From IMG/VR virus record IMGVR_UViG_3300012936_000011, positions 1 through 62,754 of that record: DNA of 62,754 bases, one strand, 5' to 3'. A model generated the notes under the pieces. It saw nothing but the letters and a program-made list of their open reading frames with translations, was not told the origin of the DNA and did not search any database. Made by a program: the position numbers and the translations under genes. Below are positions 21,955 through 42,130 of the stretch, in pieces; within the stretch, counting starts at the first letter, position 1; each line of letters opens with the position of its first letter. The DNA comes from a virus (taxonomy: Duplodnaviria; Caudoviricetes).

Positions 21955-21974
21955 AGGAATATGGAGAAAAAATA

Positions 21975-22685: not shown

Positions 22686-22686
22686 G

Positions 22687-23427
22687 ATGTCAAGTTTAAG
22701 AACCCTATTACAATACGGAACTTCTGCTTCAGGTTCAACACCGTTAAGAAGTTTGAGAGTTTATAACACGAATATTACTTCACAAAACAACGGCGGAAGT
22801 TGTTGTGTGTGGACAGTACCGGCAGGCGCTGACTGGGCTTCATTTGAAGTGTGGGGCGGCGGTGGACCAGGTGCTGGTGTGTGTTGTTGCCAACAAGGTT
22901 GGTCCGGCGGTTCGGGTTCTTATGGTAGACGAATTATTGAAACGTCAGCAGGCGAACAATTTACAATTTGTGCAGGTGGTACTACTTGTTGTCATTCAAG
23001 ATGTTATTCTTGTAAAGGATTTCCAAGTTATGTATGTGGACCAAACGGATTTTGTATGTGTTCATCAGGTGGATCAGAAGCGGCTTCAAAATGTTTTTGG
23101 AGTCAAAACTGTTCATACAGCGGATGTCAAATGTTTAACTGCGGATGTGTTAATGGAGCAACTTTAGCAATTTGTGGTACAACTGGAGGCGGACATGGAT
23201 CTGCTCACTGTGCAAGTGATATGCACCAGTTTATACCAAGTGCACCATTTACATCACATACACGTATGTCAAGAAGCGGTTGTTATAAAACGGATGGTCA
23301 AGGACAAGGTGACCATGGTGTGTTCCCAGGAGGCGGTGGCGCTTCAGGTGTAACGCATAACGAAACTTGTTATTGTGGAGCAAAAGGAATGGGCGGGTTA
23401 GTAACAGTTTACTACACGTCAACATAG
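22687..23427 (+). CDS. Cys/Gly-rich putative fibre-tip adhesin 2
   Basis: 246 aa, 23 Cys; collinear paralog (NGG.CC.WTVP, FEVWGGGG..G.CCCQ). Confidence 0.65.
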   Translation: MSSLRTLLQYGTSASGSTPLRSLRVYNTNITSQNNGGSCCVWTVPAGADWASFEVWGGGGPGAGVCCCQQGWSGGSGSYGRRIIETSAGEQFTICAGGTTCCHSRCYSCKGFPSYVCGPNGFCMCSSGGSEAASKCFWSQNCSYSGCQMFNCGCVNGATLAICGTTGGGHGSAHCASDMHQFIPSAPFTSHTRMSRSGCYKTDGQGQGDHGVFPGGGGASGVTHNETCYCGAKGMGGLVTVYYTST

Positions 23428-23442
23428 GAGTTATAGGATAGT

Positions 23443-24165
23443 ATGTCAACATTAAGAGATTTTTTATTCGGTTACGATGATCCAAAGGCAATTCCAAGAG
23501 AGTTTGCGGTTTATAATACATCTACAACTTCTCCAAACAACGGTGGAAGATGTTGTTTATGGACTGTTCCAGCAGGAAGTGCATATGCGGTTTTTGAAAT
23601 TTGGGGTGGTGGCGCCGCTGGTGACGGTGGATGTTGTTGCCAAATGGGATATCCATCATCAGGTGGAAGTTATGGACAACGTGCATTAGACGTAAGTCCA
23701 GGACAACAATACACAATTTGTGCGGCAGGTTCAACTTGCTGTAGACAAAAAGGAAACTGTCAAATAGGTTGTGACTCATACGTATGTAGATCAGGTAACT
23801 GGTGTGCAAGAGCGTGTGGAGGTAGAGTTTTAAGAACAGAATGTTTCATGTATAGAACGTGTTATTCATGTTGTAGAATGAGATATTGTGTACACGGACA
23901 CAGTGGTATGGACTTTGGAGTTGGATTAACACAAGCGACTTCACAGTTAAGTCAATACTGTCATGATAGAGGTAATATGATGACAACTGGTTCTTATGGT
24001 AACCCAGGATTTAGAAACGGACCTAACGGTTGTTGTGCTTGGGGTGGATCACAAGGCTTTGGACTATTTCCAGGTGGTGGCGGAATGTCAGCACAGGCAT
24101 ATGGTGAAGTTTGTTGTTGTGGATCTCCAGGTGCAGGTGGATTAGTATACGTGGTCTACTATTAA
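23443..24165 (+). CDS. Cys/Gly-rich putative fibre-tip adhesin 3
   Basis: 240 aa, 24 Cys; collinear paralog. Confidence 0.65.
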   Translation: MSTLRDFLFGYDDPKAIPREFAVYNTSTTSPNNGGRCCLWTVPAGSAYAVFEIWGGGAAGDGGCCCQMGYPSSGGSYGQRALDVSPGQQYTICAAGSTCCRQKGNCQIGCDSYVCRSGNWCARACGGRVLRTECFMYRTCYSCCRMRYCVHGHSGMDFGVGLTQATSQLSQYCHDRGNMMTTGSYGNPGFRNGPNGCCAWGGSQGFGLFPGGGGMSAQAYGEVCCCGSPGAGGLVYVVYY

Positions 24166-24178
24166 GAGGAAGAATATA

Positions 24179-25138
24179 ATGGCATATATTAGAAAACAAT
24201 TTAACTATCCTAAACCAGACGAATACCTTGGACAGTTCGATAACGAACAACTTGAAGGAACTCATACATATGAAGGTCCTGAAACAATGTGGGTATTCAT
24301 TGACAATGCAACTAACAGAATTGCTCCAACAGGATACATGGAAGAAGAAGATGGATTAGACTTTAATCCACCAATTAACTTAAGAAAAGTTTTAGTAGAC
24401 TGTAATGAAAATCCAATTATTTGTTCTTTAATGGAACAAGATCATGATGATGAAGAGCATGAAACAATTTCTGAAACATTGCCAAATGGTGTAGAGTATG
24501 TTACATACGCTGATCCTCCACCAGATCATACATATGAAAAATTTGACATTGAATGTAATTCAAATAACGAATTTATTAAAGTAAAGAGTAGCACAAAAGG
24601 TGGAACTCCACACTATCCATGGAAACAGCCACATATTAAATGGCCACACTTACGTAGACACAGAACTTCACTATTAGGTTGGAGTGATGATAAAATGAAT
24701 GCAGATATGCCTGCAGATTTATTAACTGCTTGGAAAGATTATAGACAAGCATTAAGAGATATTCCAGTAAGTTATGGAGACAGTTTTGCTGTTGATATTA
24801 CTGCTGGTGGTTCTAACTACGAAGTAGGTGACAAAATTAAATTTGCAAAAGCAACTTTAGATAATTTTATAATTGCTGACGAACTTATTGCTACTGTAAG
24901 CACAGTAAACAGTGGTGCTATTACTGCAATCACTTTAAGCAGTAACCAAGCAATTAATGATGGTGCAGACATTGTGATGGGTAGAGAAGCAAAAGAATTT
25001 GCTGATGCTACATACACATACGAAGCAAAAGACGGCGGTGCTGACGCAGGTACAGGTGCTAAATTTAAAGTACACAAATGTCAGCGTTATGCGGCTTGGA
25101 AAGTAGACGTTCCACGCTCACCTTGCGGTACTGCATAA
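24179..25138 (+). CDS. Tail fibre assembly chaperone-like protein with an inserted beta-sandwich repeat
   Basis: Paralog of 21975..22685 (Y.GP...W.FID, VDC...P.ICSL, DHTYE, WKQP, YRQALRD.P) plus a GSNYEVGDKI insert. Confidence 0.65.
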   Translation: MAYIRKQFNYPKPDEYLGQFDNEQLEGTHTYEGPETMWVFIDNATNRIAPTGYMEEEDGLDFNPPINLRKVLVDCNENPIICSLMEQDHDDEEHETISETLPNGVEYVTYADPPPDHTYEKFDIECNSNNEFIKVKSSTKGGTPHYPWKQPHIKWPHLRRHRTSLLGWSDDKMNADMPADLLTAWKDYRQALRDIPVSYGDSFAVDITAGGSNYEVGDKIKFAKATLDNFIIADELIATVSTVNSGAITAITLSSNQAINDGADIVMGREAKEFADATYTYEAKDGGADAGTGAKFKVHKCQRYAAWKVDVPRSPCGTA

Positions 25139-25172
25139 GCATTCAATTCTAAGAAAATTTTACACTCGCATA

Positions 25173-25180
25173 CTTAAATA
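25173..25180 (+). promoter_or_regulatory. Late promoter variant CTTAAATA, probably leaderless transcript
   Basis: TAAATA followed by 5 nt then ATG 25186; no SD. Confidence 0.5.
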
Positions 25181-25185
25181 ATTGC

Positions 25186-26019
25186 ATGAGCAATACAGTT
25201 AGGTTTGCGGGTGCTCAAACTCCCGTTACACAAGATTTAAACAAAAATGTCACAGCAATTAAGACAGCAATTGACTGGGCCGGCGATAATAAGTGCGACT
25301 GGTTAATAACACCTGAAGGTTCACTTACCGGCTACTTTCCTACATTTGATTTAACTCCAACTAACGGTATGGCAGACATTGCTAAAGCGGCATACGAAGT
25401 AATCTCATATGCAAACACAAAAGGTTTGGGATTAGCATTAGGCACATTGTGGACAGATACAGAACATAGAGGCACAATTAGAAGAAACCAAATTAGATAT
25501 TATGACAAACAAGGCGAATTTTTAGGTGCAACAAATAAGCAGTATATTGTAGGTGGAGAAGATAGTCCATCACATAGTTGGGATCAAGTATTAGCAGATC
25601 CTCCAGGAACAATTAAAACACATTATCTTGACGGTGTTAGAACAACGGGTATGATTTGTAATGATTTTTGGGGGAATGGATTTAGATTCAACGCTCCAAG
25701 TTTACCTTTATTAGCAAGTGTACATCAATGTTCTGTAATTTTACATAGTACAAATGGCGATAGAGGCAATGATGCTGATCAGTTATGGATGGATTGGCAC
25801 GATGTACATTTACGAATGATGAGTCATGTGTATAGAATTCCTATTATTACTGTTGATAGTTGTTGTGATAAGTTTGGTGAGAACGAACATTTACCTACAA
25901 GTTCACAAAGCGGAGTTTTGGTAAACGGCGAATACGTGGTCAAAGTACCAAGAACAGGACAACAACATTTTTATTGGGATTATTTCAAGAATGAAATTGA
26001 TCTTAAGGACACACAATAA
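25186..26019 (+). CDS. Carbon-nitrogen hydrolase (nitrilase superfamily)
   Basis: Glu-Lys-Cys triad motifs: LITPEGSLTGY, NKQYI, GMICNDFW. Confidence 0.85.
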   Translation: MSNTVRFAGAQTPVTQDLNKNVTAIKTAIDWAGDNKCDWLITPEGSLTGYFPTFDLTPTNGMADIAKAAYEVISYANTKGLGLALGTLWTDTEHRGTIRRNQIRYYDKQGEFLGATNKQYIVGGEDSPSHSWDQVLADPPGTIKTHYLDGVRTTGMICNDFWGNGFRFNAPSLPLLASVHQCSVILHSTNGDRGNDADQLWMDWHDVHLRMMSHVYRIPIITVDSCCDKFGENEHLPTSSQSGVLVNGEYVVKVPRTGQQHFYWDYFKNEIDLKDTQ

Positions 26020-26048
26020 GTAATTAAAACAAAGGATTAACAAACACA

Positions 26049-27020
26049 ATGTCAAAAAGAAACACAGCCTTTTTTATTAATGGTGGAGCAGGTAGAGTTA
26101 TTACTTCAATTCCTGCACTGGAAAAGTATCACGAAGAAAACCCAGATGATAATTTTATTTTAGTATGCGAAGGTGGAACTGATTTTTACAAAGGTCATCC
26201 TGTGCTACACAAAAAAGCATATGATGTATGGCACAAAAACTTATTTGAAGATAAGTTAAAAGATATGAATCTTGTAACACCAGAACCATATAGAGTATTT
26301 GAATATTATAATCAACAAGCAAGTTTAGCACAATGCTATGACATTGAAATAAACAAAAAAGGTGTGCGTGAACTTCCAAGGCCAACATTAAAGTTAAGTT
26401 CACAAGAATTAATGACTGGTCAAAAGTTAATCCAAGAAGTAAAAGAAAAAACTAAAAAAGATAAAGTAATTGTATTTCAAGCATTTGGTAGAGGAACTAT
26501 TCACGAAAACGGAATGATTATTGATCCAAGTGGAAGAAGTTTTGAAGCAGAAAATGCAGTTAACATTATTAAAGAATTATCTAAAACATATGGCATTATC
26601 TTTATGAGTGAGATTGCTATTGAGTTTCAAAAGCACGGAGTGAAGCAACCTGTTGCTATTCCACAAAACATTGAATTAAGATTCTGGGCAGGTATTATGC
26701 AGGCGGCAGATCACTTCCTTGGTTGTGATAGTGTTGGACAGCATATGATCTATGCACTTGATAAAACTGCAACAGTAGTTATTGGCTCTACATTTAAAGA
26801 AAATATTTCATATCCAAACGATGAAAAGTTTGACATTCTTGATATGGGCGAAGGTGCAAGAGTATATTCTCCTATTAGAATTACTCATGATGAATTGTCT
26901 GATAGAACTAACGAAGGTATTATGTTTATGAACGACAAGATTGAAGAAGTTGTTTGTAATTCAGTACATAAGATGATTAAGAATGGAAAACGAGATCCTG
27001 AAGACAAAGAAAAAGAATAG
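26049..27020 (+). CDS. GT9-like glycosyltransferase (ADP-heptose heptosyltransferase fold)
   Basis: N-terminal GGAGRVITSIPAL and C-terminal ADHFLGCDSVGQHMIYALDKTATVVIGST match the WaaC/WaaF patterns (GD....PAL; DSG..H...AL......G.T). Confidence 0.7.
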   Translation: MSKRNTAFFINGGAGRVITSIPALEKYHEENPDDNFILVCEGGTDFYKGHPVLHKKAYDVWHKNLFEDKLKDMNLVTPEPYRVFEYYNQQASLAQCYDIEINKKGVRELPRPTLKLSSQELMTGQKLIQEVKEKTKKDKVIVFQAFGRGTIHENGMIIDPSGRSFEAENAVNIIKELSKTYGIIFMSEIAIEFQKHGVKQPVAIPQNIELRFWAGIMQAADHFLGCDSVGQHMIYALDKTATVVIGSTFKENISYPNDEKFDILDMGEGARVYSPIRITHDELSDRTNEGIMFMNDKIEEVVCNSVHKMIKNGKRDPEDKEKE

Positions 27021-27885
27021 ACTTTTTACCTTTGGCTGTAGTTTTACAATGTATGCTTGGCCAACATATGCAGATATTCTCGGTTCATATTTTGAAGTAT
27101 ATGAAAACTGGGCCTTTCCTGGATTAGGCAATCGTGCTATAGCAGAACGTGTTGCTGAGTGTCATTTAAAAAATAACTTTACTAAAGACGATGTAGTACT
27201 TGTACAATGGAGTACACACGTTAGAAATGACTATCATACTTTCGTTCCTATGGAATACGATCCTAAAAGTTTTTTACACGTTTGGTTTAGACGCAATAAT
27301 CAAATTGGTTGGAAGACACAAGGTAGTATTTTTAATTCTAATAATAGGCAACACATATACAATGATAATTGGTGTAATATATTCTGGGACGAACACAGTT
27401 ATATGATGTATAGTCTAAATGATATGATGCTTACACAAGGCTTACTTGATAGCACAGGTTGTATATGGCGTATGACAAGCATAGGTGACTTTGCAAAAAT
27501 GTGCAGTGATATTCCAGATGCACATGACGAAGATATATCAGATCAACAAAATATATTTGACAGCAAGAAAGAATTTGAAATTTATAAAAATGTTTTAGAA
27601 CATCCTAATTGGTTAGAACCAATTGGTACATATAGTTGGAAAAATAAAGAAAATAGTTATACCTTTGAAGGTGACAAAGGACCTTGGTTAGAAATACATC
27701 CAAGTCATAAACAGCATTTAGATTATGCAGAGAATATTTTAAATTTAGGTATTGACTTATCAGATTATAAAATAAATGTAAGCGAAAAGATAGAAGAAAT
27801 TAAATTAAATGAGTCTAACTTCTTAAGTTTTCAAGAAAAGGTTAGTAAAGCAGTACACCACGAACCAACATATAGGGGCTTTTAA
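26983..27885 (+). CDS. SGNH/GDSL-like hydrolase or acyltransferase 1
   Basis: LFTFGCSFT (block I), PGLGN (block II), VQWS, C-terminal EIHPS. Confidence 0.6.
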   Translation: MENEILKTKKKNRLFTFGCSFTMYAWPTYADILGSYFEVYENWAFPGLGNRAIAERVAECHLKNNFTKDDVVLVQWSTHVRNDYHTFVPMEYDPKSFLHVWFRRNNQIGWKTQGSIFNSNNRQHIYNDNWCNIFWDEHSYMMYSLNDMMLTQGLLDSTGCIWRMTSIGDFAKMCSDIPDAHDEDISDQQNIFDSKKEFEIYKNVLEHPNWLEPIGTYSWKNKENSYTFEGDKGPWLEIHPSHKQHLDYAENILNLGIDLSDYKINVSEKIEEIKLNESNFLSFQEKVSKAVHHEPTYRGF

Positions 27886-28775
27886 TGAAAAGATTATTTG
27901 CATTTGGTTGTAGTTTTACGATGTACGCTTGGCCTACTTACGCAGATTATGTAGGTTATGAATTTGACCATTATGAGAACTGGGGATTTCCTGGTTTAGG
28001 TAATAGGGCAATAGCACAAAGAGTTGCTGAATGTCATGCTAAAAATAAATTTACAAAAGATGATACAATTATTGTACAATGGAGTACACATATTAGAAAC
28101 GATTGGCATACATTTAGAACTGTAGAGTTCAAAGGCAAAAGAGGTGATGCAATTAGAAATACAGATGAAATAGGTTGGAAAACAAAAGGTAGTATTTTTA
28201 ATTACATGAATAGAGAAGTGTGTTATGATGATCATTGGATAGAAACTTTCTGGAATGAAGCAAGTTATTTTATGCATGGTCAAAACAATATTATACAAGT
28301 ACAAGGACTATTAGATAGCATAGGTTGTACATATAGAATGACAACTATAGGAGAAATGAATAGACTTGGTACTGATATGCCAGACGCTCCACAATATGGA
28401 GAAACTACACAAGAAAAAGTAGACATATATGTTGACTTTCCGGCAATGAAAGTATATAATAACACAAATAAAAATTGGTTAGAACCTTTAGGATTGTTTA
28501 GTTGGAAACGTAAAGACGACACATATACATTTTACGATCCTAAAACAAAAAATTACTGGACTGAATTTCATCCAAGTCATTGGCAACATTTTGCTTATGC
28601 CAACGAAATACTCCGTCCAAGTTTGGGGTTACCAAAACAAAATAACGATAAACAAATACATACAATGGAAAAACTTAATCACTTAAAAGATACTAAACAC
28701 GATTTAATTTCTTTTGAAGATGCAATACTTGAAGAAATTGTTGATTATAAACACATTGGGTATATAGGATTTTAA
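27885..28775 (+). CDS. SGNH/GDSL-like hydrolase or acyltransferase 2 (tandem paralog)
   Basis: Near-identical N-terminus FGCSFTMYAWPTYAD...ENW.FPGLGNRAIA.RVAECH; EFHPS; TAATG coupling to the previous gene. Confidence 0.6.
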   Translation: MKRLFAFGCSFTMYAWPTYADYVGYEFDHYENWGFPGLGNRAIAQRVAECHAKNKFTKDDTIIVQWSTHIRNDWHTFRTVEFKGKRGDAIRNTDEIGWKTKGSIFNYMNREVCYDDHWIETFWNEASYFMHGQNNIIQVQGLLDSIGCTYRMTTIGEMNRLGTDMPDAPQYGETTQEKVDIYVDFPAMKVYNNTNKNWLEPLGLFSWKRKDDTYTFYDPKTKNYWTEFHPSHWQHFAYANEILRPSLGLPKQNNDKQIHTMEKLNHLKDTKHDLISFEDAILEEIVDYKHIGYIGF

Positions 28776-28776
28776 A

Positions 28777-30591
28777 ATGAAAAAACCAGACTTATGGATT
28801 GCCGCAATAGCAAGAGGACACAATGCAGGTGTTTGTCTTTTAAAAAACGGTGAAGTAGTATTTTCAATTGAAGAAGAACGTTTAAGTCGTCACAAGTATG
28901 ACGGCGGACCTTTTGCTTCAATGATGAAAATTTTAGAATATACAAATAAATTAGATTATCTTGTAGTAGCACATACGCAAAGTTTGGAAGATACCGCAGG
29001 TAAAGTAGACTTTACAGGTGATGATGTTTACACAGGACTTGCTCGTAAACTTGGTTTAATAAGTCAAGATGCAAAACACTTACCTAAACATCCTCAAGTA
29101 ATTGATTTAAGTTACTATCATCATAAACTACACGCGGCTTTGGCTTTTTACAATTCAGGATTTAATGATGCAGTTGCAGTAATTGTAGATGGAGCAGGTA
29201 CATTCTTCTCTGCACAGTTACAAGGAGAGCAAGGACCATCAACTACACTATGGGAAACAGAAACAATTTTTGACTGTGAATATCCTATAAACTTTAAAAC
29301 ATTATACAAACACTTAGGTACAACTGGTCCATTGACTGGTGCAGAGATGCTTGACTTTAATGCAGACTTTTTTGGTGAAGAAGGTAAAGTTCCTAAAGTT
29401 GTATTAACAGAAACAGCAGGAATTGTTAAAACATATGAAGCAGTAACAGACTACTGTGGTTTTAGTTTTATTGAAGCAGGAAAAACAATGGGATTATTTC
29501 CTTATGGTAAAGAAAACAAAGAAAATATTCCACAGTTGTTTACAAGTAATCAAACAAGTCCGTTGTCTAATAGAAATATTATTATTCCTAACTATCCAAA
29601 CGGTGCTTTTGTAAATAGAAATTATTTTGATTACTTACGTGATAAATTTGATCAAGAAGAAGATGTTACAAAATTAGATAATAGAAGAGATATGGCTTAT
29701 GCTGTGCAAACACAAACACAAAAACAAGTTGCAGATTTAATTAGACAAGCAGTTGCAATGAGTGGCAAGAAAAATGTTGTGTTAAGTGGAGGATATGGTT
29801 TAAACTGTGTGGCAAATTATTGGTATCTTGAAGAATTAAAAGACGAAGGTATAAATTTATACGTTGAGCCAGTCAGTAATGATGCAGGTACAGCAATGGG
29901 TGCGGCTATGTTACAGCACAGAGCAATTACAAAAGACATGACTGTACATCCACAAAAAGAAACATTATATAACGGACCGCAGTACTATTATGAATCTAAT
30001 GAAATAGAAGAGATAGCAAACAAATACAATGGTACAGTAAGTCATGCAGAAAGCGAAGAAGTAGTAGACTTACTTACAAAAAGAAATATAGTTGCTATAT
30101 TTCAAGGACAATCAGAAAACGGTCCAAGAGCATTAGGTAACAGAAGTTTCTTATATGATCCGACAGATCCAGATGGCAAAGATCATGTCAATAAAGTTAA
30201 ACGTAGAGAATATTTTAGACCATTTGCAGGAACAATTCTTGAAGAAGATGTACATGAATGGTTTGATTTGCGTGGTATGAAAAGTTCTCCAACAATGATG
30301 TATGCTGTAAACTGTCAACCAGGTATTGAAGAAAAGATTCCTGCTATTATTCATGTTGATGGAACTTGCAGAATACAAACAGTAAGTGAAGAACAGAACC
30401 CACATTACTATAGTTTAATCCAAGCATTCAAAGAAAAGACAGGCGTACCTATGGTGTTTAATACAAGTTTTAATTTAGGTGGCGATCCTTTAGTAGAAAC
30501 GCTGGATCATGCTGTTGCAACACTGGCTAAATCCGACGTAGAATACCTATATTTGCCTGAATACTCCACACTTATCACTGTGAAAAATTAA
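28777..30591 (+). CDS. Carbamoyltransferase (NodU/CmcH/TobZ family)
   Basis: EEERLSRHKYD, HHKLHA, VDGAG, GKTMGL.PYG, LSGG.GLNCVAN, NDAGTAMGAA, E.GPRALGNRS, KRREYFRPFA, HVDGTCRIQTV, NTSFN. Confidence 0.93.
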   Translation: MKKPDLWIAAIARGHNAGVCLLKNGEVVFSIEEERLSRHKYDGGPFASMMKILEYTNKLDYLVVAHTQSLEDTAGKVDFTGDDVYTGLARKLGLISQDAKHLPKHPQVIDLSYYHHKLHAALAFYNSGFNDAVAVIVDGAGTFFSAQLQGEQGPSTTLWETETIFDCEYPINFKTLYKHLGTTGPLTGAEMLDFNADFFGEEGKVPKVVLTETAGIVKTYEAVTDYCGFSFIEAGKTMGLFPYGKENKENIPQLFTSNQTSPLSNRNIIIPNYPNGAFVNRNYFDYLRDKFDQEEDVTKLDNRRDMAYAVQTQTQKQVADLIRQAVAMSGKKNVVLSGGYGLNCVANYWYLEELKDEGINLYVEPVSNDAGTAMGAAMLQHRAITKDMTVHPQKETLYNGPQYYYESNEIEEIANKYNGTVSHAESEEVVDLLTKRNIVAIFQGQSENGPRALGNRSFLYDPTDPDGKDHVNKVKRREYFRPFAGTILEEDVHEWFDLRGMKSSPTMMYAVNCQPGIEEKIPAIIHVDGTCRIQTVSEEQNPHYYSLIQAFKEKTGVPMVFNTSFNLGGDPLVETLDHAVATLAKSDVEYLYLPEYSTLITVKN

Positions 30592-31080: not shown

Positions 31081-32118
31081 ATGGCAGTAACTTATAACCC
31101 GTTCGAATCAGAGCAAGGCTTTAAAAGTCCTGGGTTCACAGTCGATAACGAAGGTAATGTTACACTAAAAAGTCTGACATATCTTGATCCTGAAGAAACA
31201 ATCGTAACAGACAGATTATATTTTAACCAATCAGGTACAGGTGAAAGTGCAAACTTTACACAGGATGGTGTTTTTTCAGAAGGATCATCAGTATTACGAG
31301 AAAATCCACCACTTTCGTTAGTGCGTGGTACAACTTACAGTTTCAATTTAAATAATTTTGCATTCCTTACTTGGAATATTTTTCAAGTAGATTTAACAGG
31401 TAATAGTGCAATACAAATTAATGGTATTCCTGTAGTTACTTATAATGATGGTGTAACTTATAAAACAAGTGATACATCTGAAGAAGTACTATCTGGAGAA
31501 CAAGCACAAGGTAAAACTACTGGTGTATTTTTCTTTGAAGTACCTGCGTTAGCACCAGACACATTGTATTATGCAACAGGTGACGGAACAGTTTATGGTA
31601 CTATTACAACTGCTGATCCAACTATAACAGGTATTGGTAGTTTTAGCAGTTTAAATGTTATTGGTGATGTTACTTTTACAGGACAAGATGCAGATTTAGT
31701 TTTAGCACCACAAGGTGCATATGGTACAGTAACTATAAATCCAGCAGGACAAGGTACATTAAGCAATATGTATGTAAATGCATTAACGCTTAATGCAACA
31801 GATACAGTTAATTTAAGTCCAATTGATGATAATGTTACTATTAGTCCAAGCGGCACAGGACAACTTACATTAAACAGTGGTGTACAAGGTACAATAAATA
31901 ATATGTCAATAGGACAAACCACTGCAAGAGATGGATCGTTCTTAGCGTTAAATGCTGAAAATGGGTTAAATAATACAGTGATAGGAAACGTTACTCCTAA
32001 GGATGCAACGTTTAATCAAGCAACAGGAAGAAATGCACCAGTGACAAGTCAACATTTAACAAACAAAAAATACGTAGACAATACGGCAACAGCATTAGCA
32101 GTTGCATTAGGAGTATAA
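31081..32118 (+). CDS. Fibre protein with a degenerate cupredoxin-like domain
   Basis: LSLVRGTTYSF...FEVP..APDTLYY without the Cys/His/Met ligands; C-terminal HLTNKKYVD...ALAVALG fibre motif. Confidence 0.65.
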   Translation: MAVTYNPFESEQGFKSPGFTVDNEGNVTLKSLTYLDPEETIVTDRLYFNQSGTGESANFTQDGVFSEGSSVLRENPPLSLVRGTTYSFNLNNFAFLTWNIFQVDLTGNSAIQINGIPVVTYNDGVTYKTSDTSEEVLSGEQAQGKTTGVFFFEVPALAPDTLYYATGDGTVYGTITTADPTITGIGSFSSLNVIGDVTFTGQDADLVLAPQGAYGTVTINPAGQGTLSNMYVNALTLNATDTVNLSPIDDNVTISPSGTGQLTLNSGVQGTINNMSIGQTTARDGSFLALNAENGLNNTVIGNVTPKDATFNQATGRNAPVTSQHLTNKKYVDNTATALAVALGV

Positions 32119-32123
32119 AATAA

Positions 32124-35100
32124 ATGGCAAAGCGTAAGATTAACGATTATATATTCCATACAGGTATTCCTTACAGTGAAAATCGCCGACCTAATGCATA
32201 TTATTTGATTCAAAACAACGTTGAATTTCTTAAAGATGAAACAAGAGCATACATTAATGCAGAAATTGCTATTGCTGTACAATATACTCCAACAGGTGCA
32301 GTATACGAACCAACTACAGGTGACTTGACAATTACCCTTGGATCAGGACATAATTTAAATCCTGGATCTTTTATAAAAATTTCCGATGGTGCATTAACAT
32401 TTACGCCTGCTTTAAATATTCCAGCAACTAAAATTTGGCTTGTTAAAAGTGTAACAGCAGATAGTGTTACAATTAATATTCCACCAAATGATGTTACTGC
32501 AAGAACATTTAGCAGTGCGGCAAGTAATGGTGTTGAAAATGTATTTTACAATTACACAAATGACAGTAATGACAAGTGTGAAAGAGATATGGGATACAAC
32601 CTTATTGGTGGCGATCCTAAAAATCCTGTTCAAGACCAACCAGGCGGTTTACTATTTGATCTAAGATACAACGGTAACGAACAAGCACGTTATCTTGCTT
32701 CTACATATTGGGACGGTGCTATTCCGCAAATTGATGGTGACAGAAATCCAGAAAGAGCGGCAAAACAATTTTGTGCTTGGTTGATTAAAAATTATATTTT
32801 AGATAATGTAGCATATACAACAAAACAATCACCAGTAGTAACAACACAACATATTAATACAGAATATGTTGCTGAATCTTCAGCAGATGCACAGGTTGAT
32901 AAAGTTTTAACAGATACTATCGGTGAAGTAATTTACTTTGGTACTGATGTGATGCCAGATTTTCATCGTGCAGAAATAAGTAGAGCAATTTTTCCAACAA
33001 AAGTTACACAAGATAATTTACTTTTAATTACAGATACAACTGTTAATTCAGTTTTGTTTAACTTTAGTGATGGAAGTAAAGGTGCTGATGTAAAATACGC
33101 TTATGAATCAGTTGAATTTACACCAACATACTTTTACTTTCAAAAATTTCTTGAAACAACTGATACAATTACACAAGTATTATTTGATACAAGTACAGAA
33201 ACAGAAGAATTTCTTCAAAACGCAAGAACATTACTTTCAAACAACAAAGAATTTGTAAAAGATGAAGTACGTGCTTGGGTTGCAGATCAAGTTACAAATG
33301 CATCAGCAGGGAGTATCTGGCAAGGATACACTTATAGTGGACCTGCTGTTGAAAGAGATACAGGATTAAATGTAGATAATATTATTGCAGATATGCAATA
33401 TGGCGGAAATAAAAATGTAAGATTGAAAGCGGCACAATATTGGAAGGGTCCTACTCCACAAATTACAGGTTCACGTGAACCAGAAATTGCATATAATAAT
33501 TTCATGCGTGATTTAATTAATAATTACATTCTTAAAAAATTAGTTTATCCTACCAAACAAACAGGTACTCCAGAAACTACACAATACTTTTTAGGATTTG
33601 ACAGTGAATTAGGAGCAGACACTCGTGTAACAGAATCTGTCAAAATTATAACAGATGTAATTCAAAATGGATTAGAATTTTTACCATCAGAAAATGCTCC
33701 GATTGTTTGGAACGAAAATGATACACTACAAATTTTTGTAGATCAAGGTGATCTAAAAACAAGACCTTATGATTTTGGTACTGATGCAATTGAAAGACAA
33801 AGAGTTGCAAACTCTTTATCCATGCTTGATGCTGACTTTGAATATGGTTTACAGCCTACGAAGTGGCAAGCCATTGGTACAATGCGTGGATATCCATCGA
33901 CATATGAAGTACCAGGTACAGATACAGCAGTTGCAAGTGTAACTACAGATGCATCAACAGGCAGTAGCGGAGTTGGTCAATCATTAATTAGTGTTACTAC
34001 AGTTGGACCACATGGTGTTGAAGCAGGTAACCCAATAACAATTAGAGGATTAGATGGTTCTGTTGCAGGTAACGGTCGTGCTGAAGGTACATTTATTGTT
34101 AATACAGTACAGGATAATACAACTTTCACTTACTATGCAAAAGCAAAAGTTGGTGTAAGTGCAGGAACAACGTTACAAACATTTTATACTATTTTAAGAC
34201 AAGCGGCATTTTACACAGGTGCGGCAATACAAGGTGACACACCTTCATTTGCAATTACTACACAAGGTTCGTCAGGTTCATTTACACTTGCACTTGGAGT
34301 AGACACTGGTGAAGATAGATTAGCATTTACAGGTACTGCACCAAACATAGGTGCTCCACTACAAGCAGTAGGTGGTGGTATTCCTCTTGGTTCTCAGGTA
34401 ACTGGTATAACTGGCACAGGTTCTATTATTACAACGCCTGTTCTTACATCAGACATTGCACAAGGATCATTTACAGTAGCAGTAGAAGACAGTGCGGCAG
34501 TACAAGTAGGTAGTGCTATTGATAGAGGTGACGGTGTAGCGGCATTCGTTACAAATGTTGTAGGAAATGATCTTACAATTAGTAGTGCAACTTCAAGAAC
34601 ACTTGTAGGTAACACAGTTCTTTATCAAGGACTAACAGGTACCAATGACACTTCAATTGGTAATGGAGCAAGTTTTGATGTTACAAGAACAAACGGTGTA
34701 TATTCAACAGTATTAAATGCTTCAGGACAAGATTACAAAGTTGGTGACAGAATTATTATTAGTGGTGGTCAACTTGGTGGGTTAGACACAACAAACGATT
34801 TAAAAATTTTAGTAGACACTGTTGATACAGGTGGTGAAATAACTGGATTCACTGAGTCAGGTACTGGGTTTGATGGTACTGGATCGTTCTTTGGCTTATC
34901 AGGCGAACTACAAGGTAACATTGGTGCAAATCCTGTATTTGATATTACATATACAAACAATGCATATACAGTTTCTGTTGCATCTCCAGACACATCACAA
35001 AACTATACAGTAGGTGATAGAATTAAAATTGACGGATTTGAATTAGGCGGACAAAGTGTAACTAATGATTGTTTCGTAACTGTGACAGGTGTTGGTGCTG

Positions 35101-38100
35101 GTGGAGCAATTACTTCTGTAACAAGTTCAGGAACAGCAGTTGATGCTGATGTATCTTATTCATCTCCACCTAAGACTACAACAACAGTAAGTGGTGTTGA
35201 TGCAGACTTTAACATACAAAGAATTGGTACAGCCTATACAATTAACTTAACAAATGCAGGATCAGGATATCTTGCTTCAGAAACATTCACAGTATTAGGT
35301 TCTGATGTAGGTGGTGTTGACGGTGTAAACAATGTTACAATACAAATTACAACAGTTGACGCTGGAGGAGCAATTACAGGTACAAATGTTACAGGAACAG
35401 CAAATAACTCTAAAACTTATGGTTATGTTAATTTAGGAACAAATGTTATTGGTAGTGGTGCACAGTTTCAGATTGATTTAGCAACAGGAACATATACAAT
35501 TAATATTGAAAGTGCTGGTAGCAATTATGGTGTAGACCAAGAAATTTTAGTAAGAGGTACAGATGTAAGTGGAGCAAGTCCAGACAACGATATTACTATA
35601 ACAATTACAAGTGTAAATCCAAGTGATAACGGAATATCAGGTATATCATTTACAGGAACAGGAGCAACAGGTAGTGGAAGTTACGTAAATATTCAAGGTA
35701 ATAATGATAGTAATAGCGGTAGTAACGCAACGTTTGATATTACACGTTCAGGCGGCACATATAGTTTAGTAGTTGCAACCGACGATGGTTCAAGTTATCA
35801 AGTTGGTGATAGAATTGTTATTCCAGGAGACCAGTTAGGTGGCCAAACTCCTACAAATGATTTAGTATTAAGAACTACATTAGAATCTACTGAAGGTAAT
35901 TTTATAGGCATTGATGCACAAGGAACAGCAGTTGCTGGTGAAACATTGAACTTATACAGTGCATTAACAATGACAGAAGAAACTACATCAGCAATAAATC
36001 AAGCAACAGTAATTACTTACAGTGCATTAGCAAGTGTTAGAGTAACATTTGGTACACCACATGGACTTGTACCAGGAGATAGTTTTGCAATTACTATTTC
36101 ATCAGACGATGGTGTAAACAATCACGCACTTGCGGCAGGACCATTTAGTGCTACAGCAGTACCTTCAGCAACACAACTTGAATATCAGTGTAGATCACCA
36201 GGATTTATTGATACAACATCAGATCAGCAAATTACTGGTAACGTGTATCCAAGACCAGATTCGTTCTTTATACACAGACCATATGATGGTGGTGTGCAGT
36301 TAGGAACAGGCGGTCCACAACACGGTGCTCAAGCAATTAGACAGAGTAAAAAATATATTAGATATCAATCAGGTAAAGGTATCATGTATACAACTGGTGC
36401 TTTATTTGCTCCAAGTTATAACATTTTAACTATTACAGCAGACGGTAACACACCAGGTAGTATTATTACTGTAACAACTGACGAAACAGAACACGGTTTA
36501 CAAGTAGGAGGCGGTATTAAACTTATTGGTATTGACACTGTAGGATATAATGGAGATTATATTGTTTCTGATGTTAACGATGAAAACACATTTGAAGTAG
36601 TTGCAAGTACAGCATTAGGTTCACTTACTCCAGAAATAAGTTCAGAAGCACAAGTTTCATTAAGAACGTTTCATGGTGCAACAGTACGTTCGGGTGCATT
36701 TGATGATCAAAACGGTATTTTCTTTGAATATGATGGTACACAATTCAGTGCTGTACAAAGAACTGCAACTTTACAATTAGCAGGTGTTGTTGACATTGAT
36801 GTTGACTCTAATACTTGTACAGGTGTAGGAACAAGATTTAGAGAACAATTAAAAGCAGGTGATAGAATTGTGCTTAAAGGAATGACACACGTTGTAACGA
36901 CAGTTGTGTCTAATACATCAATGTATCTTGCACCTGACTTCCGTGGTGTTACAGACGTAAGAGCAAGTAAAATTTGTTTAGTAAGAGATAAAAAGACAGA
37001 ACAAAAAGACTTTAACAGAGATAGAGGTGACGGTACAGGACCAAGTGGATACAACATTGACATTAGTAAGATGCAGATGGTTGGAATTCAGTACAGTTGG
37101 TACGGTGCTGGATTTATTGACTATATGCTTAGAGGAGCAGATGGTAACTTTGTGTTCATGCATAGAATGAGAAACTCAAACGTTAACACAGAAGCATTTA
37201 TGAGAACTGGTAATATGCCGGTTAGATATGAAATTACAAACGAAGGTCCTGTTGGTAAACTTGCAAAAGACATTACAAGCACAGATACTACTATACCACT
37301 ACAAGATGCTTCATTCTTCCCACCAGAAGGAGGAACAGTTTACATTGATGCAGAAATGATACGTTTCACAGGCATTGATGGTAAAAATTTAACTGGTTGT
37401 ACAAGACAAACAACTATGACAAACTTTGCCGCTGGTGCTACAAGAACATACACTGGTGGTACAGCAGACTCACATACAAGAAATACTGGGGTGGTATTAA
37501 TTAGTAATACTGCTTCACCAAACATATCACACTGGGGTTCAGCATTTATTACAGACGGTGGTTTTGATTCAGATCGTGGATATTTGTTTAGTTACAAATC
37601 AACTGGTGTTGAGGTAAGTACTACAAGAAACAGTTCATTCTTATTAAGACTTGCACCGTCGGTATCCAACGCACTTGTTGGTGACTTAGGTGAACGTGAA
37701 CTTTTAAACAGAGCACAGTTACTACTTGAAGGTCTTGAAATTACAACTGATCCACCTCAAGCAAGTGATACAGGTGGTATTATTGTTGAAGGAATATTAA
37801 ATCCTCAAAACTATCCATTAAATCCAAATGATGTTGGTTGGCAGGGACTGTCCGGCCTTGCACAAGGTGGCCAACCAAGTTTTGCACAGATTGCTCCGGG
37901 CGGATCTGTTAACTGGAACTCAGGTGATGTTCCAGTTACGGCTCAAGTAACTACTCAAGCACCTATTACTGCAAACGTTATTGCAAAAGATAGAGGTTAT
38001 AGCGCCAGCAATAGATATTGGGATAACGGTTTAACAAATGGTAGAAATAGATTCTTTGTACTTGATAGTTTCTATCAAGCAAATCAAGCACTATTTGAAC

Positions 38101-38735
38101 CCGGTATTGGAGTACAAAGTGCTTCAGGAAATTATTTTCCAGCAGGTACTACAATAACTTCAATATCAAGTTACACATGGAGCTCAAATGGTTTCGGCAA
38201 TGTAAGACACATCTTTACTTCTTCTGCTCCTACTTCAAACGTAACAGGTGATGTTCCAATAGTGCTTTCAAAAACATTTAAAGGTGCACCTACTAATAAT
38301 ATTTTCTTTGAAAAAACCGATTATGATAGTGCTGGTGTTGTACAAGGTACAGTTGTTAGTGATTCAAGATTCCCTGCAGGAACACAGGTTTCTACAGTAT
38401 CATTAAGGACTTATGGTGCTACACAATATTATGATGTTACATTTAACCAGTCAACAGATAACCAAGCAATAACCGCTGGTACTACAGACATAGAATTTGA
38501 GTTTGTGCAACCTCCATATGCACAACCAGGAGAAACTATCTTCTCATTTATTGCACAGCCTGGAGAAAGATCAACATTGGATCTTGCATTTATTAAAGAA
38601 TTAACAAATACTACCTTAGGTGGTAGAGGTACTTTCCCGAATGGACCAGACGTATTAGCAATTAACGTTTATAAAACAAGTGGTTTAGATATTAACGCCA
38701 ATATTGTTTTAAGATGGTCAGAAGCACAGGCTTAA
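32124..38735 (+). CDS. Giant virion structural protein with two phycobiliprotein-like helical domains and five beta-sandwich repeats
   Basis: 2203 aa, Gly/Thr/Ser-rich. DKCERDMGY and AVERDTG..V...DM.YGGN helical domains; five G..Y.VGD.I.I.G..LGG....ND repeats. Confidence 0.75.
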   Translation: MAKRKINDYIFHTGIPYSENRRPNAYYLIQNNVEFLKDETRAYINAEIAIAVQYTPTGAVYEPTTGDLTITLGSGHNLNPGSFIKISDGALTFTPALNIPATKIWLVKSVTADSVTINIPPNDVTARTFSSAASNGVENVFYNYTNDSNDKCERDMGYNLIGGDPKNPVQDQPGGLLFDLRYNGNEQARYLASTYWDGAIPQIDGDRNPERAAKQFCAWLIKNYILDNVAYTTKQSPVVTTQHINTEYVAESSADAQVDKVLTDTIGEVIYFGTDVMPDFHRAEISRAIFPTKVTQDNLLLITDTTVNSVLFNFSDGSKGADVKYAYESVEFTPTYFYFQKFLETTDTITQVLFDTSTETEEFLQNARTLLSNNKEFVKDEVRAWVADQVTNASAGSIWQGYTYSGPAVERDTGLNVDNIIADMQYGGNKNVRLKAAQYWKGPTPQITGSREPEIAYNNFMRDLINNYILKKLVYPTKQTGTPETTQYFLGFDSELGADTRVTESVKIITDVIQNGLEFLPSENAPIVWNENDTLQIFVDQGDLKTRPYDFGTDAIERQRVANSLSMLDADFEYGLQPTKWQAIGTMRGYPSTYEVPGTDTAVASVTTDASTGSSGVGQSLISVTTVGPHGVEAGNPITIRGLDGSVAGNGRAEGTFIVNTVQDNTTFTYYAKAKVGVSAGTTLQTFYTILRQAAFYTGAAIQGDTPSFAITTQGSSGSFTLALGVDTGEDRLAFTGTAPNIGAPLQAVGGGIPLGSQVTGITGTGSIITTPVLTSDIAQGSFTVAVEDSAAVQVGSAIDRGDGVAAFVTNVVGNDLTISSATSRTLVGNTVLYQGLTGTNDTSIGNGASFDVTRTNGVYSTVLNASGQDYKVGDRIIISGGQLGGLDTTNDLKILVDTVDTGGEITGFTESGTGFDGTGSFFGLSGELQGNIGANPVFDITYTNNAYTVSVASPDTSQNYTVGDRIKIDGFELGGQSVTNDCFVTVTGVGAGGAITSVTSSGTAVDADVSYSSPPKTTTTVSGVDADFNIQRIGTAYTINLTNAGSGYLASETFTVLGSDVGGVDGVNNVTIQITTVDAGGAITGTNVTGTANNSKTYGYVNLGTNVIGSGAQFQIDLATGTYTINIESAGSNYGVDQEILVRGTDVSGASPDNDITITITSVNPSDNGISGISFTGTGATGSGSYVNIQGNNDSNSGSNATFDITRSGGTYSLVVATDDGSSYQVGDRIVIPGDQLGGQTPTNDLVLRTTLESTEGNFIGIDAQGTAVAGETLNLYSALTMTEETTSAINQATVITYSALASVRVTFGTPHGLVPGDSFAITISSDDGVNNHALAAGPFSATAVPSATQLEYQCRSPGFIDTTSDQQITGNVYPRPDSFFIHRPYDGGVQLGTGGPQHGAQAIRQSKKYIRYQSGKGIMYTTGALFAPSYNILTITADGNTPGSIITVTTDETEHGLQVGGGIKLIGIDTVGYNGDYIVSDVNDENTFEVVASTALGSLTPEISSEAQVSLRTFHGATVRSGAFDDQNGIFFEYDGTQFSAVQRTATLQLAGVVDIDVDSNTCTGVGTRFREQLKAGDRIVLKGMTHVVTTVVSNTSMYLAPDFRGVTDVRASKICLVRDKKTEQKDFNRDRGDGTGPSGYNIDISKMQMVGIQYSWYGAGFIDYMLRGADGNFVFMHRMRNSNVNTEAFMRTGNMPVRYEITNEGPVGKLAKDITSTDTTIPLQDASFFPPEGGTVYIDAEMIRFTGIDGKNLTGCTRQTTMTNFAAGATRTYTGGTADSHTRNTGVVLISNTASPNISHWGSAFITDGGFDSDRGYLFSYKSTGVEVSTTRNSSFLLRLAPSVSNALVGDLGERELLNRAQLLLEGLEITTDPPQASDTGGIIVEGILNPQNYPLNPNDVGWQGLSGLAQGGQPSFAQIAPGGSVNWNSGDVPVTAQVTTQAPITANVIAKDRGYSASNRYWDNGLTNGRNRFFVLDSFYQANQALFEPGIGVQSASGNYFPAGTTITSISSYTWSSNGFGNVRHIFTSSAPTSNVTGDVPIVLSKTFKGAPTNNIFFEKTDYDSAGVVQGTVVSDSRFPAGTQVSTVSLRTYGATQYYDVTFNQSTDNQAITAGTTDIEFEFVQPPYAQPGETIFSFIAQPGERSTLDLAFIKELTNTTLGGRGTFPNGPDVLAINVYKTSGLDINANIVLRWSEAQA
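34640..35930 (+). repeat. Five tandem ~90-aa repeats in the 2203-aa protein
   Basis: GQDYKVGDRIII, SQNYTVGDRIKI, GSGYLASETFTV, GSNYGVDQEILV, GSSYQVGDRIVI. Boundaries approximate. Confidence 0.7.
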
Positions 38736-40060: not shown

Positions 40061-40871
40061 GTATCCATTCTTGTGGTCTTATAAAACTGTGATCTATGTG
40101 ATCCAGTAATTTTTTATTGTTACTGCAAGTATATGCTTGGTAATGACTTTTTAAGTTGTCTGGCATTGGAATAATTTCTATAGTTGCATTGTATTTTTTT
40201 GCAACAGTATCTGCAATAGTTTTAAAACTGGTTGCGGTGCCAGTTCCTAAGTTAAAAATACCACTTACGTCTTGTTCTAACATTTTTTCATGCACCAAAC
40301 ATACGTCTTGTACACTTATAAAATCACGTAGATAGTTTTCGCTATTCTCAAACAATTTTATTACGCCTGTTTCTTTTGCTTGTTTGGTAAATTTAGTAAT
40401 TGGACTTGCTTGATTACCTTTATGGTCTTCATAATTACCATATACATTGAAATAACGGAAACCTTGTATGTTAATTTTAAAGTCATTAGCATAATCTCTA
40501 ACCCATCTATCAATAAGGTACTTACTCCAAGCATAAGCATTCATAGGATAACACATACTGTCCTCAGAAAAGCCGTCTGTACCATGTCCATACACACTTG
40601 CCGAACTTGAGAACTGCAAACTGGTACCCATCATGTCACAAATTTCAATTAATTTCATTGTCCATTCGTAATTTTGTTTCAGTATTTTTTCAACATCTGT
40701 TTCTGTTGTGCTTGAAATAGCACCACAGTGAATAACACGGTCATATTTTTGTGCATCTGGAAATCTGTTTTCTTGCCATTCCCAACCTTCAACTTCGTGT
40801 CCTTTGTATTGTAGATAAGAGGCAATATTTTTGCCAATAAATCCTTCATGTCCTGTAACTAATATTTTCAT
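40047..40871 (-). CDS. hldD: ADP-L-glycero-D-manno-heptose 6-epimerase-like extended SDR
   Basis: ILVTG..GFIG, GAISSTTE.D, SSASVYG, P.NAYAWSK (YxxxK), FRYFNVYG..E.HKG.QAS, RDFI.V.D, YQ.YT; directly downstream of hldE. Confidence 0.85.
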   Translation of the reverse strand: MKILVTGHEGFIGKNIASYLQYKGHEVEGWEWQENRFPDAQKYDRVIHCGAISSTTETDVEKILKQNYEWTMKLIEICDMMGTSLQFSSSASVYGHGTDGFSEDSMCYPMNAYAWSKYLIDRWVRDYANDFKINIQGFRYFNVYGNYEDHKGNQASPITKFTKQAKETGVIKLFENSENYLRDFISVQDVCLVHEKMLEQDVSGIFNLGTGTATSFKTIADTVAKKYNATIEIIPMPDNLKSHYQAYTCSNNKKLLDHIDHSFIRPQEWIHESK

Positions 40872-42130
40872 ACTTGCTTTTGTTTCTTTATTTCATCAAT
40901 TAATTGTGTTGTTGATACATTTTCTATATATGGAAAAATTTTAGTTGGAAATAATTCATGTCCTACTACAGTATCAATTGTATAATCACCACCTTTTATT
41001 ACCAAACCAGGATTTACTTTTTTAAGTGCTTCTAATGGAGTGTCTTCATCGAATATGATTACTTCATCAACCCATGGTAATAACTCTAAATTCATTTTTC
41101 TTTGTAGTTGTGTGTTTATAGGTCTGTCTTCGCCCTTCAATCTTTTAGTACTTGCATCACTGTTTATACCTACTACTAATTTTTGTCCTTGTTGGCTTGC
41201 AAATTTAAGTAATTTAAAATGTCCTTCATGTAAAATATCAAACACACCATTAGTCCAAACAACTTTAGGCTTTAAATCTTCTTGTGTTATTGTAACAACA
41301 CCTCTACGTTCAACACTTCTTGCCGCGGCGTAACAAGCAAGTTTACAGGTTTCAAAAATATTCCAACCTTGTTCTACACCATATGCGATCACAGCAAGTA
41401 CAGTATCTCCTGCACCTGTAACATCTGCAACTTCTTTTACTTCTTCTTTAAAATGTTGGTATTCTCCAGCAATGTTTAAAACGTGCATTCCGTTTTTACC
41501 ATCAGTAACTACTAACCATTTCCAATCATGTTCTTTCATTGCAAATAAAGCAACTTCCCTGTTAAATTTTCCAAACCATTCTTTATATTCTTTCATGTTA
41601 GGTTTTACAAGAAATGCACCTTTGTAAAATTCTGATTCTTGTTTAGGATCTACTAAAACTGTTGGGGTTTTTTCAAGTATTTTTGCTACTGTATCTTTGC
41701 GAACAGTGCCTTTATTGTAATCACTTACACAAACAATATCATCTTCTTTTAAACTTGTAACTAATCTTTCTTGTGCTGAAGTCCATTTGTATTTTTCTTC
41801 TCTATCCCACCTCATAATATGTTGACCACCTTGACCAACAAGTCTTGTTTTTGTTGTGGTAACATTTGCGTCAGAAGTAGTGCTTACATTAAGTTTGGTT
41901 TTTTCTAAAATTTCAAGAAGTTTGTAACCGTCTTTATCTTGTCCTATTGCACCATATAAATCTACTTCTCCGTTGACAGAAGAAATGTTTAGTGCAAGAT
42001 TACCTGCACCACCTACACTGTATTTTTGACCTTTTTCTTTAAGAATTGGAACTGGTGCTTCTGGACTTATTCTTTTAGCGGAACCATAAATCCAGCGATC
42101 TAACATTATGTCGCCATACACTTTGATCAT
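40868..42130 (-). CDS. hldE: Bifunctional heptose-7-phosphate kinase / heptose-1-phosphate adenylyltransferase
   Basis: GDIMLDRW..G...RISPEAPVP, GGAGN.A, SDYNKG, VDPK, DVTGAGDTV (PfkB kinase) fused to TNGVFDILHEGH...GINSD.S..RLKG..RP, KGGDY. Confidence 0.93.
   Translation of the reverse strand: MIKVYGDIMLDRWIYGSAKRISPEAPVPILKEKGQKYSVGGAGNLALNISSVNGEVDLYGAIGQDKDGYKLLEILEKTKLNVSTTSDANVTTTKTRLVGQGGQHIMRWDREEKYKWTSAQERLVTSLKEDDIVCVSDYNKGTVRKDTVAKILEKTPTVLVDPKQESEFYKGAFLVKPNMKEYKEWFGKFNREVALFAMKEHDWKWLVVTDGKNGMHVLNIAGEYQHFKEEVKEVADVTGAGDTVLAVIAYGVEQGWNIFETCKLACYAAARSVERRGVVTITQEDLKPKVVWTNGVFDILHEGHFKLLKFASQQGQKLVVGINSDASTKRLKGEDRPINTQLQRKMNLELLPWVDEVIIFDEDTPLEALKKVNPGLVIKGGDYTIDTVVGHELFPTKIFPYIENVSTTQLIDEIKKQKQV

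Follow-up and report, generated by a model that had tools for sequence, protein, structure and literature searches.

The virus record IMGVR_UViG_3300012936_000011 (62,754 bases, analysed whole and called the window here; an estimated ~18% of a genome) encodes a virion structural protein of 2203 residues. Residues ~17-273 of this protein are one copy of a globin-type module of ~150 residues, and the nearest known relatives of this module, in fold and in sequence, are the bilin-binding globins called phycobiliproteins. Phycobiliproteins are the antenna pigments of cyanobacteria and some algae, and distant relatives have recently come to light in other bacteria. The module adds to the bilin-binding globins a large and new branch that is carried by phages, which use it as a repeated building block of their tail-fibre and baseplate proteins. 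In the literature, supplementary files being outside the scope, no prior description of a phycobiliprotein-type domain in a phage particle was found. Abundant aquatic phages commonly have, as a repeat in their tails, a phycobiliprotein relative that keeps the pigment triad; even if purely structural, it would be a clear example of a virus particle that has reused a fold of the photosynthesis type, and it annotates part of many giant "hypothetical" virion proteins. Judging from the sequences, the modules with the C-x-R-D triad may carry a pigment, for which our rough probability is 0.42.

The gene and the parts of its first module (module A) are laid out as follows:

32124-38735, plus strand: open reading frame (ORF) of 2203 residues, virion structural protein with two N-terminal phycobiliprotein-like modules (translation, PHROGs)
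32172-32273, plus strand: N-terminal helices of module A (model helices 23-30 and 33-50; profile positions 4-54; from profile and model)
32274-32561, plus strand: inserted beta-barrel of the FCCH type, residues ~51-146, in the loop between helix B and the Cys helix
32568-32942, plus strand: C-terminal part of module A, with the Cys helix 149-160 and helices 176-182, 186-193, 208-225 and 254-272 (profile, model)
32577-32588, plus strand: C152-E153-R154-D155, the C-x-R-D triad, aligned with the bilin-binding Cys-x-Arg-Asp of alpha-phycocyanin
32604-32648, plus strand: extra loop of ~15 residues (161-175, G-G-D-P-K-N-P-V-Q-D-Q-P-G-G) interrupting the Cys helix (alignment, model)

A preliminary description of this DNA, made from the letters alone, had quoted a protein string for 32190-32807 with a cysteine at residue 152; translation gives that string, and Cys152, whose codon is TGT at 32577-32579, stands within K-C-E-R-D-M-G-Y. 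It had also taken 32190-32807 as the range of the module. A domain is present there, but it is longer than was thought, as its last helix (254-272) ends near 32942. The model of copy A (273 residues, 111-sequence alignment) had a predicted local distance difference test score (pLDDT) of 89.4 and a predicted template modelling score (pTM) of 0.86, with helices at 23-50, strands at 58-139, the Cys helix at 149-160, a poorly defined loop at 161-175 and four more helices. The insert of ~96 residues, entirely beta in the model and differing in length among orthologues, is the separate beta domain that had been proposed in the loop before the Cys helix, as this model and the fold searches bear out. 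The extra loop at 161-175 is confined to module A and its orthologues and was modelled with lower confidence (block pLDDT 65-78). Cys152 and K-C-E-R-D-M are invariant in all 13 aligned orthologues of module A.

A family profile, built iteratively from five seed modules, gave 573 domain hits in the 122 proteins examined, with 1 to 17 hits per protein. When this profile was run against the six-frame ORFs of the window, module A was matched in two pieces because the insert splits it; 32172-32336 (E 1.3e-10) and 32496-32942 (E 1.6e-31) are the two halves of one module. The remaining matches in the window were:

33195-33671, plus strand: module B of the 2203-residue protein, of canonical length, with Val for Cys (V-E-R-D; profile E 4e-55)
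16990-17484, plus strand: module in the 1701-residue tail-fibre protein, with Trp for Cys (W-R-R-D; profile E 2.5e-32)
17893-18186, plus strand: second module of the 1701-residue protein, Cys kept (C-K-R-D), matching profile positions 7-86 only (profile E 7e-15)
17614-17850: weak remnant of a module (profile E 0.005)

As the matches of the four copies are far beyond chance, those recognised earlier (starting at 17008, 17908, 32190 and 33216) are real and form one family. Cys is kept in two of the four, as C-E-R-D in module A and C-K-R-D at 17893-18186, and the other two keep Arg-Asp. The statement that the module sits in proteins with different scaffolds also held, given the range of hits per protein, the up to 37 matched stretches of the module in single proteins and the variety of scaffolds, which include fibre, gp7-like baseplate and other virion proteins.

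The fold was compared by using the model of copy B (100-sequence alignment; pLDDT 90.3, pTM 0.87), which has six helices. In a Foldseek search of the Protein Data Bank (PDB), phycobiliproteins came first and haem globins next, with template modelling scores (TM-scores) of 0.52-0.63. An independent search of 48,161 representative chains placed allophycocyanin (Z-score 14.3), phycoerythrin (13.9), an allophycocyanin-like chain (12.8) and the bilin-binding domain of ApcE (12.6) on top, followed by sensor globins (12.1 and 11.6), RsbR (10.8) and photocobilin proteins (10.0); according to the notes of the fold-search tool, helical folds can score a high Z by chance. Based on the ranking in these searches, the predicted fold of the module is that of a globin, nearest to phycobiliproteins and with a gradual fall-off towards other sensor-type globins. 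The globin-like phycobiliprotein fold (helices A-H) was recovered. At the N-terminal X-Y hairpin region, copy B aligns only from chain residue 29-31 onward, and copy A aligns from residue 17-18, its first 20 residues having a pLDDT of 46-58. Identity to phycobiliproteins in the structural alignments is only 6-14%. Taken with the sequence comparisons below, it is very probable that the module and the phycobiliproteins share both ancestry and fold.

In the sequence comparisons, the phycobiliprotein family PF00502 (gathering cut-off 22.2 bits) scored 29.5, 39.6 and 36.1 bits in the three relatives that were re-scanned (3/3), in each case inside modules of the family, and a precomputed PF00502 label is carried by 5 of 120 relatives of the N-terminus, among those listed. 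From the 153 modules in the window and 46 viral contigs, a non-redundant set of 100 full-length modules with less than 70% mutual identity was compiled, leaving out locus L020, which is a second copy of the window's own 16414-19593. PF00502 matched seven of these 100 modules at E <= 0.01, and any other Pfam family matched at most one of them. The profile of the 100 modules gave ten matches at E <= 10 among 177,635 PDB sequences, the six best all being alpha-phycocyanin (E 0.011-0.78) and the remaining four neuraminidases (E 1.4-1.6). In this comparison the Cys, Arg and Asp of the module fall on Cys84, Arg86 and Asp87 of alpha-phycocyanin, which places the motif at the chromophore position alpha-84 / beta-82, in agreement with the earlier remark that the motif resembles the alpha-phycocyanin chromophore site.

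A comparison of hidden Markov models with phycobiliproteins, which the preliminary description had proposed, was carried out with hhalign against 138 different phycobiliprotein ORFs, of both alpha and beta subunits, taken from 80 loci of cyanobacteria. The 100 modules matched with a probability of 80.1% (E 1.4e-5, 90 columns), and the triad again aligned with the Cys-x-Arg-Asp column of the 138 cyanobacterial sequences. The controls gave 0.1% both with reversed phycobiliproteins (E 0.44, 13 columns) and with reversed modules (E 0.69, 27 columns). The match was 89.5% to alpha subunits only (E 2e-6, 24 columns) and 34.7% to beta subunits only (E 4e-4, 63 columns). With the fold searches, the PF00502 scores and the PDB matches, these results uphold the description of the module as phycobiliprotein-like.

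The triad itself is strongly conserved. Within the 573 hits, the column of Cys is kept in 401/479, that of Arg in 419/478 and that of Asp in 435/477, and the other conserved columns are a second Asp (457/469), an Asn (420/466) and a Tyr (425/466). Of the 100 non-redundant modules, 90 have the Cys, 96 the Arg and 98 the Asp. The triad residues are kept at 84-98% although the modules are only ~20-28% identical overall. When all three positions were aligned (477 hits), Cys, Arg and Asp were found together in 401, and none of the 401 modules with Cys lacked Arg or Asp. The 76 modules without Cys comprised 42 that had lost all three residues, 18 that keep Arg-Asp and 16 that keep Asp only. The three residues behave as one unit, kept or lost together, with the reservation that the counts include orthologous copies and hence overstate independence. 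Exactly one Cys is found in 98 of 153 modules, therefore an intramodule disulfide is not the rule, and the family profile has neither a second conserved Cys column nor a conserved haem-ligating His column.

The family is large. Its profile matched 1556 representative clusters at E <= 0.001 among 1.84 billion proteins, including 1213 at E <= 1e-10 and 694 at E <= 1e-30. In tblastn searches of 50,697 phage records, a canonical module matched 137 records, all named Synechococcus phage, Prochlorococcus phage or Cyanophage, and the N-terminus of the 2203-residue protein matched 12 records, all of Synechococcus phages; megablast of the region of this protein against phage records found no match. Among cultured phages, the module was found only in cyanophage tail-fibre and baseplate proteins, the matched genes being annotated as short tail fiber protein, gp7 baseplate wedge or virion structural protein, and K-C-x-R-D is kept in the copies from cultured phages. 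BFVD models of tail proteins from S-CAM1, S-WAM2, S-PM2, S-ShM2 and others match the fold of the module. Culturable phages that bear it include S-PM2, Syn1, Syn9, P-HM1/2 and P-SSM4.

The module occurs in T4-like cyanophages and in related myoviruses of ~320 kb, to which the window phage belongs. The window corresponds to the structural region of a T4-like myovirus genome and holds genes for a baseplate wedge, a gp9-like connector, sheath, tube and large terminase (TerL). The sole complete relative of the window phage is G002, a 322.5-kb genome with terminal repeats; window and G002 are 53-62% identical in the sheath and 60% in TerL, and the TerL of the window is only 34-37% identical to that of cyanomyoviruses. 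The label of a cyanophage clade was considered for the lineage of the window and rejected, because psbA-type reaction-centre genes and CpeT are absent from all five large related records (G002 and four others).

If the modules hold a bilin, genes for making and attaching it could be expected in some of these phages. In G002, a haem oxygenase gene adjoins a PcyA/PcyX-like reductase gene. This cassette lies at 32-33 kb and the modules at 193-197 kb, ~160 kb apart. In the reverse search, 75 viral records encode a relative of the G002 reductase; the larger 40 of these, of about 30 kb or more, were scanned, and modules were found in six of them, that is in 6/10 of those of at least 95 kb and in 0/30 of the smaller ones. 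Of the six, two seem to represent a single phage, and the six probably form one clade. In five reductase-bearing records with first-look candidates, modules were absent even when the threshold was relaxed to E <= 1. The pelagiphage Mosig has hemO and pcyX and no module at E <= 0.01, for which reason an obligate link of the modules to genes of bilin synthesis was rejected. In a 2024 study, phage cassettes of hemO and a reductase were described as "still enigmatic", and globins of the BBAG type (bilin biosynthesis-associated globins) were named as one possible partner (PMC11480375).

The distribution of the lyase-type protein CpeT (PF06206) follows that of the module in 22 cultured genomes (four taken from the module matches, Mosig and five more from the reductase matches, and twelve by accession). 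Modules are present in 16 and absent from six. CpeT was detected at E <= 0.001 in 13 of the 16 module-bearing genomes; the other three have an ORF of 145-155 residues whose summed PF06206 score passes the cut-off, and one of these is annotated cpeT. No CpeT candidate was found in the six module-free genomes, which include the cyanomyoviruses S-SM2, S-SSM7 and S-CRM01. Module and CpeT are concordant in 22/22 genomes (naive Fisher 1.3e-5 with the relaxed calls, 1.1e-3 with the strict ones). In S-PM2, Syn1 and S-RSM4, cpeT lies 0.7-1.5 kb upstream of a module-bearing giant fibre gene on the same strand, with a 2OG-Fe(II) oxygenase gene between the two in S-PM2 (L302) and Syn1 (L303). Relatives of the S-PM2 CpeT were not found in bacterial genomes.

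The conservation of the triad suggests that C-x-R-D is a working ligand site and not a relic, which we regard as reasonably probable. The leading, still tentative, candidate for the ligand is a linear tetrapyrrole, which would be joined to Cys152 by a thioether and held by Arg154 and Asp155 as the bilin is in phycobiliproteins. In that case the copies that keep Cys would act as pigmented beads along the fibre, and those without it (33195-33671 and 16990-17484) would have no ligand or would hold one non-covalently. The bilin may come from the host, or from a phage haem oxygenase and bilin reductase, and it may be attached by a phage CpeT-type lyase where there is one, or else without a lyase as in the BBAG globins. 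CXRD is the attachment motif of phycobiliproteins, and some BBAG globins with CXRD are reported to bind bilins without lyases (Rockwell and co-workers 2023, PMC10151467). If the site binds a bilin, the module would be a viral substrate for phage cpeT, hemO and pcyX. It would also be a concrete candidate, at the molecular level, for what gates adsorption by light and thereby for the daily rhythm in which cyanophages infect.

A number of observations weigh against pigment-bearing modules. In module A and in the whole 2203-residue protein, PF00502 has no match at E <= 1 and the gathering cut-off is not reached; the best and only match in the window record is at 17914-18093 (14.6 bits, E 9.3e-4), which lies in the second module of the 1701-residue protein and is below the cut-off. 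Searches of PDB sequences with single sequences (residues 1-525, and the relative P0080) returned nothing relevant, and the orthologues of module A alone match phycobiliproteins in hhalign with 46.4% (E 2e-4) over just 24 columns. The Foldseek E-values for copy B are weak (best 0.055, none <= 0.001). Two of the four window copies have no Cys, and in the model of module A helix E is broken just after the motif, which could spoil a pocket. The haem oxygenase and reductase are missing from 45 of the 46 module-bearing viral records, these 45 being 3-62% complete, with G002 the only one that has both, and Mosig and P-SSM2 encode both bilin enzymes with 0 modules. On a quick TerL tree, S-SSM7, P-SSM2 and S-SM2 fall into a single group, and S-CRM01 and Mosig each sit alone on a long branch, so that the association with CpeT amounts to only about three independent contrasts. 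Modules occur in G002 although it lacks CpeT, and neither CpeT nor a bilin reductase was found in the window record, which is ~18% of a genome and was not searched for haem oxygenase. A rival reading is a structural relic, in which a genuine phycobiliprotein-type fold, captured by phages, is kept just as a rigid bead or spacer in fibres and holds no ligand; in place of the bilin, a buried network of polar and aromatic residues could occupy the old pocket, made up of the Cys, Arg and Asp of the triad, the Asn, the Tyr and the near-invariant Asp of D-L-x-Y-G-G-N. Phage fibres are full of borrowed domains, here CBM_5_12 repeats and FCCH-type barrels, and the second Asp and the Asn are family-specific conserved positions foreign to phycobiliproteins. 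The two window copies without Cys also work without it, the modules of G002 have no lyase, bilin genes and modules are found apart, and the N-terminal hairpin of phycobiliprotein assembly has no counterpart in the alignment of copy B. Such a relic is a serious though somewhat doubtful explanation, as the residues that hold the bilin are retained at a high level across very divergent modules, are lost together, and the co-distribution and synteny with cpeT are left without explanation.

Another, rather improbable, explanation is that the site is functional with a different partner, the Cys serving for a link between subunits or modules (a disulfide or other cross-link), or for a metal or other small ligand, and so stabilising or regulating the fibre. 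Virions are exposed to an oxidising medium, most modules have a single conserved Cys, and the triad is co-conserved. However, every residue of the motif aligns with its counterpart in the bilin site, and the family profile offers neither a second Cys for an intramodule disulfide nor a His for haem. It is very improbable that the module is an unrelated helical bundle, for example one akin to head-tail adaptors, with a chance likeness to phycobiliproteins. The high Z that helical folds can reach by chance and the weak Foldseek E-values would allow this, and in the ESM Atlas there were weak matches to clusters of head-tail connectors or adaptors, of which some have E1_FCCH (scores <= 0.91, 135/256 features shared). 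These Atlas matches are below the reliability marks of the tool and, as judged, are explained by the FCCH-type insert; sequence and fold, moreover, independently agree on the same family and register, and the reversed-profile controls fail.

If the modules do carry a pigment, those with Cys could be bilin-carrying photoreceptor beads on fibres and baseplate that make adsorption light-dependent, which we consider unlikely. Loading would be by the phage CpeT-type lyase in cyanomyoviruses and, in the ~320-kb myoviruses, would proceed without a lyase, using bilin from the phage haem oxygenase and PcyX. P-HM1 and P-HM2 have been reported not to adsorb in the dark, and adsorption of S-PM2 has been reported to be light-dependent and independent of host photosynthesis; P-SSP7 adsorbs in the dark, as does P-SSM2, less well than in the light (PMC6628666, PMC2984593). 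Modules number nine in S-PM2, four in P-HM1 and four in P-HM2, and 0 in both P-SSM2 and P-SSP7. The presence of modules agrees with published light-dependent adsorption in these five phages, which represent about four independent lineages, one of them a podovirus, and the support this lends to light-gated adsorption is anecdotal. If true, the photoreceptor role would explain the role of phage cpeT, the synthesis of bilins by phages of non-photosynthetic hosts, and the cyanophages that adsorb only in light.

Compared with known systems, the module shares with phycobiliprotein subunits (PF00502) the C-x-R-D in the same helix and register, the G-G-(T/N) turn after the motif, and scores above the Pfam cut-off in some family relatives. 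Phycobiliprotein subunits are free, disc-forming proteins of 160-185 residues, whereas the phage module is a repeat in virion proteins of 1,000-6,000 residues; the X-Y hairpin has no match in copy B, module A carries its barrel and extra loop, and the phage module has conserved positions of its own. ApcE, a cellular antenna protein, has one such domain, in contrast to the many copies on the virus particle, and the domain inserted in it is a different one. The BBAGs, as described in PMC10151467, are likewise distant phycobiliprotein relatives outside light harvesting, some with CXRD, and the related G002 encodes a haem oxygenase and a bilin reductase. By that description, with which alone the module was compared, BBAGs are small cellular proteins beside bilin genes, unlike the modules of G002, which are far from its cassette; a position beside haem oxygenase and bilin reductase genes was seen neither in G002 nor, for the reductase, in the window record. 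The insert resembles the FCCH of ubiquitin-activating enzyme E1 and the beta-barrel of phage endosialidase, but it is nested in a globin-type domain.

Beyond its N-terminal modules, the 2203-residue protein matches phrog_5838 (virion structural proteins in PHROGs). P0094, a relative of 2331 residues, bears the precomputed label of a copper-binding domain of the plastocyanin type (PF00127) and is listed as plastocyanin in one source; other relatives carry PF13385 or PF13599. Borrowed domains, those of the photosynthesis type among them, seem to accumulate in giant virion proteins. The 1701-residue tail-fibre protein (15424-20529, plus strand) begins with seven CBM_5_12 carbohydrate-binding repeats (E 1e-32), and its residues 1356-1429 weakly match E1_FCCH, the same barrel type as the insert of module A.

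Besides the 2203-residue protein, the window encodes two other giant fibre proteins and a Nol-like carbamoyltransferase. The gene of the latter (28777-30591, plus strand; E 2.3e-162) stands amid the tail gene block, directly upstream of the 2203-residue gene. At 21223-28775 (plus strand), eight ORFs of 236-323 residues lie in a row between fibre genes. Several belong to PHROGs of unknown function and two weakly match the tail-fibre-assembly family phrog_9740 / phrog_4912; the eight may be paralogous fibre accessory proteins. An ORF of 420 residues on the minus strand (40868-42130) has a C-terminal third that corresponds to heptose 7-phosphate kinase / heptose 1-phosphate adenylyltransferase (phrog_7878, E 8e-29).

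In the related genomes, ClpS-like adaptor and IbpA/IbpB-like small heat-shock genes stand beside the haem oxygenase and bilin reductase genes of G002 (31528-34911, L049), and three 2OG-Fe(II) oxygenase genes stand beside hemO-pcyX in Mosig (L137). The terminase match in S-ShM2 is broken by one TGA and one TAA, which could reflect an intron, a split gene or a sequencing error.

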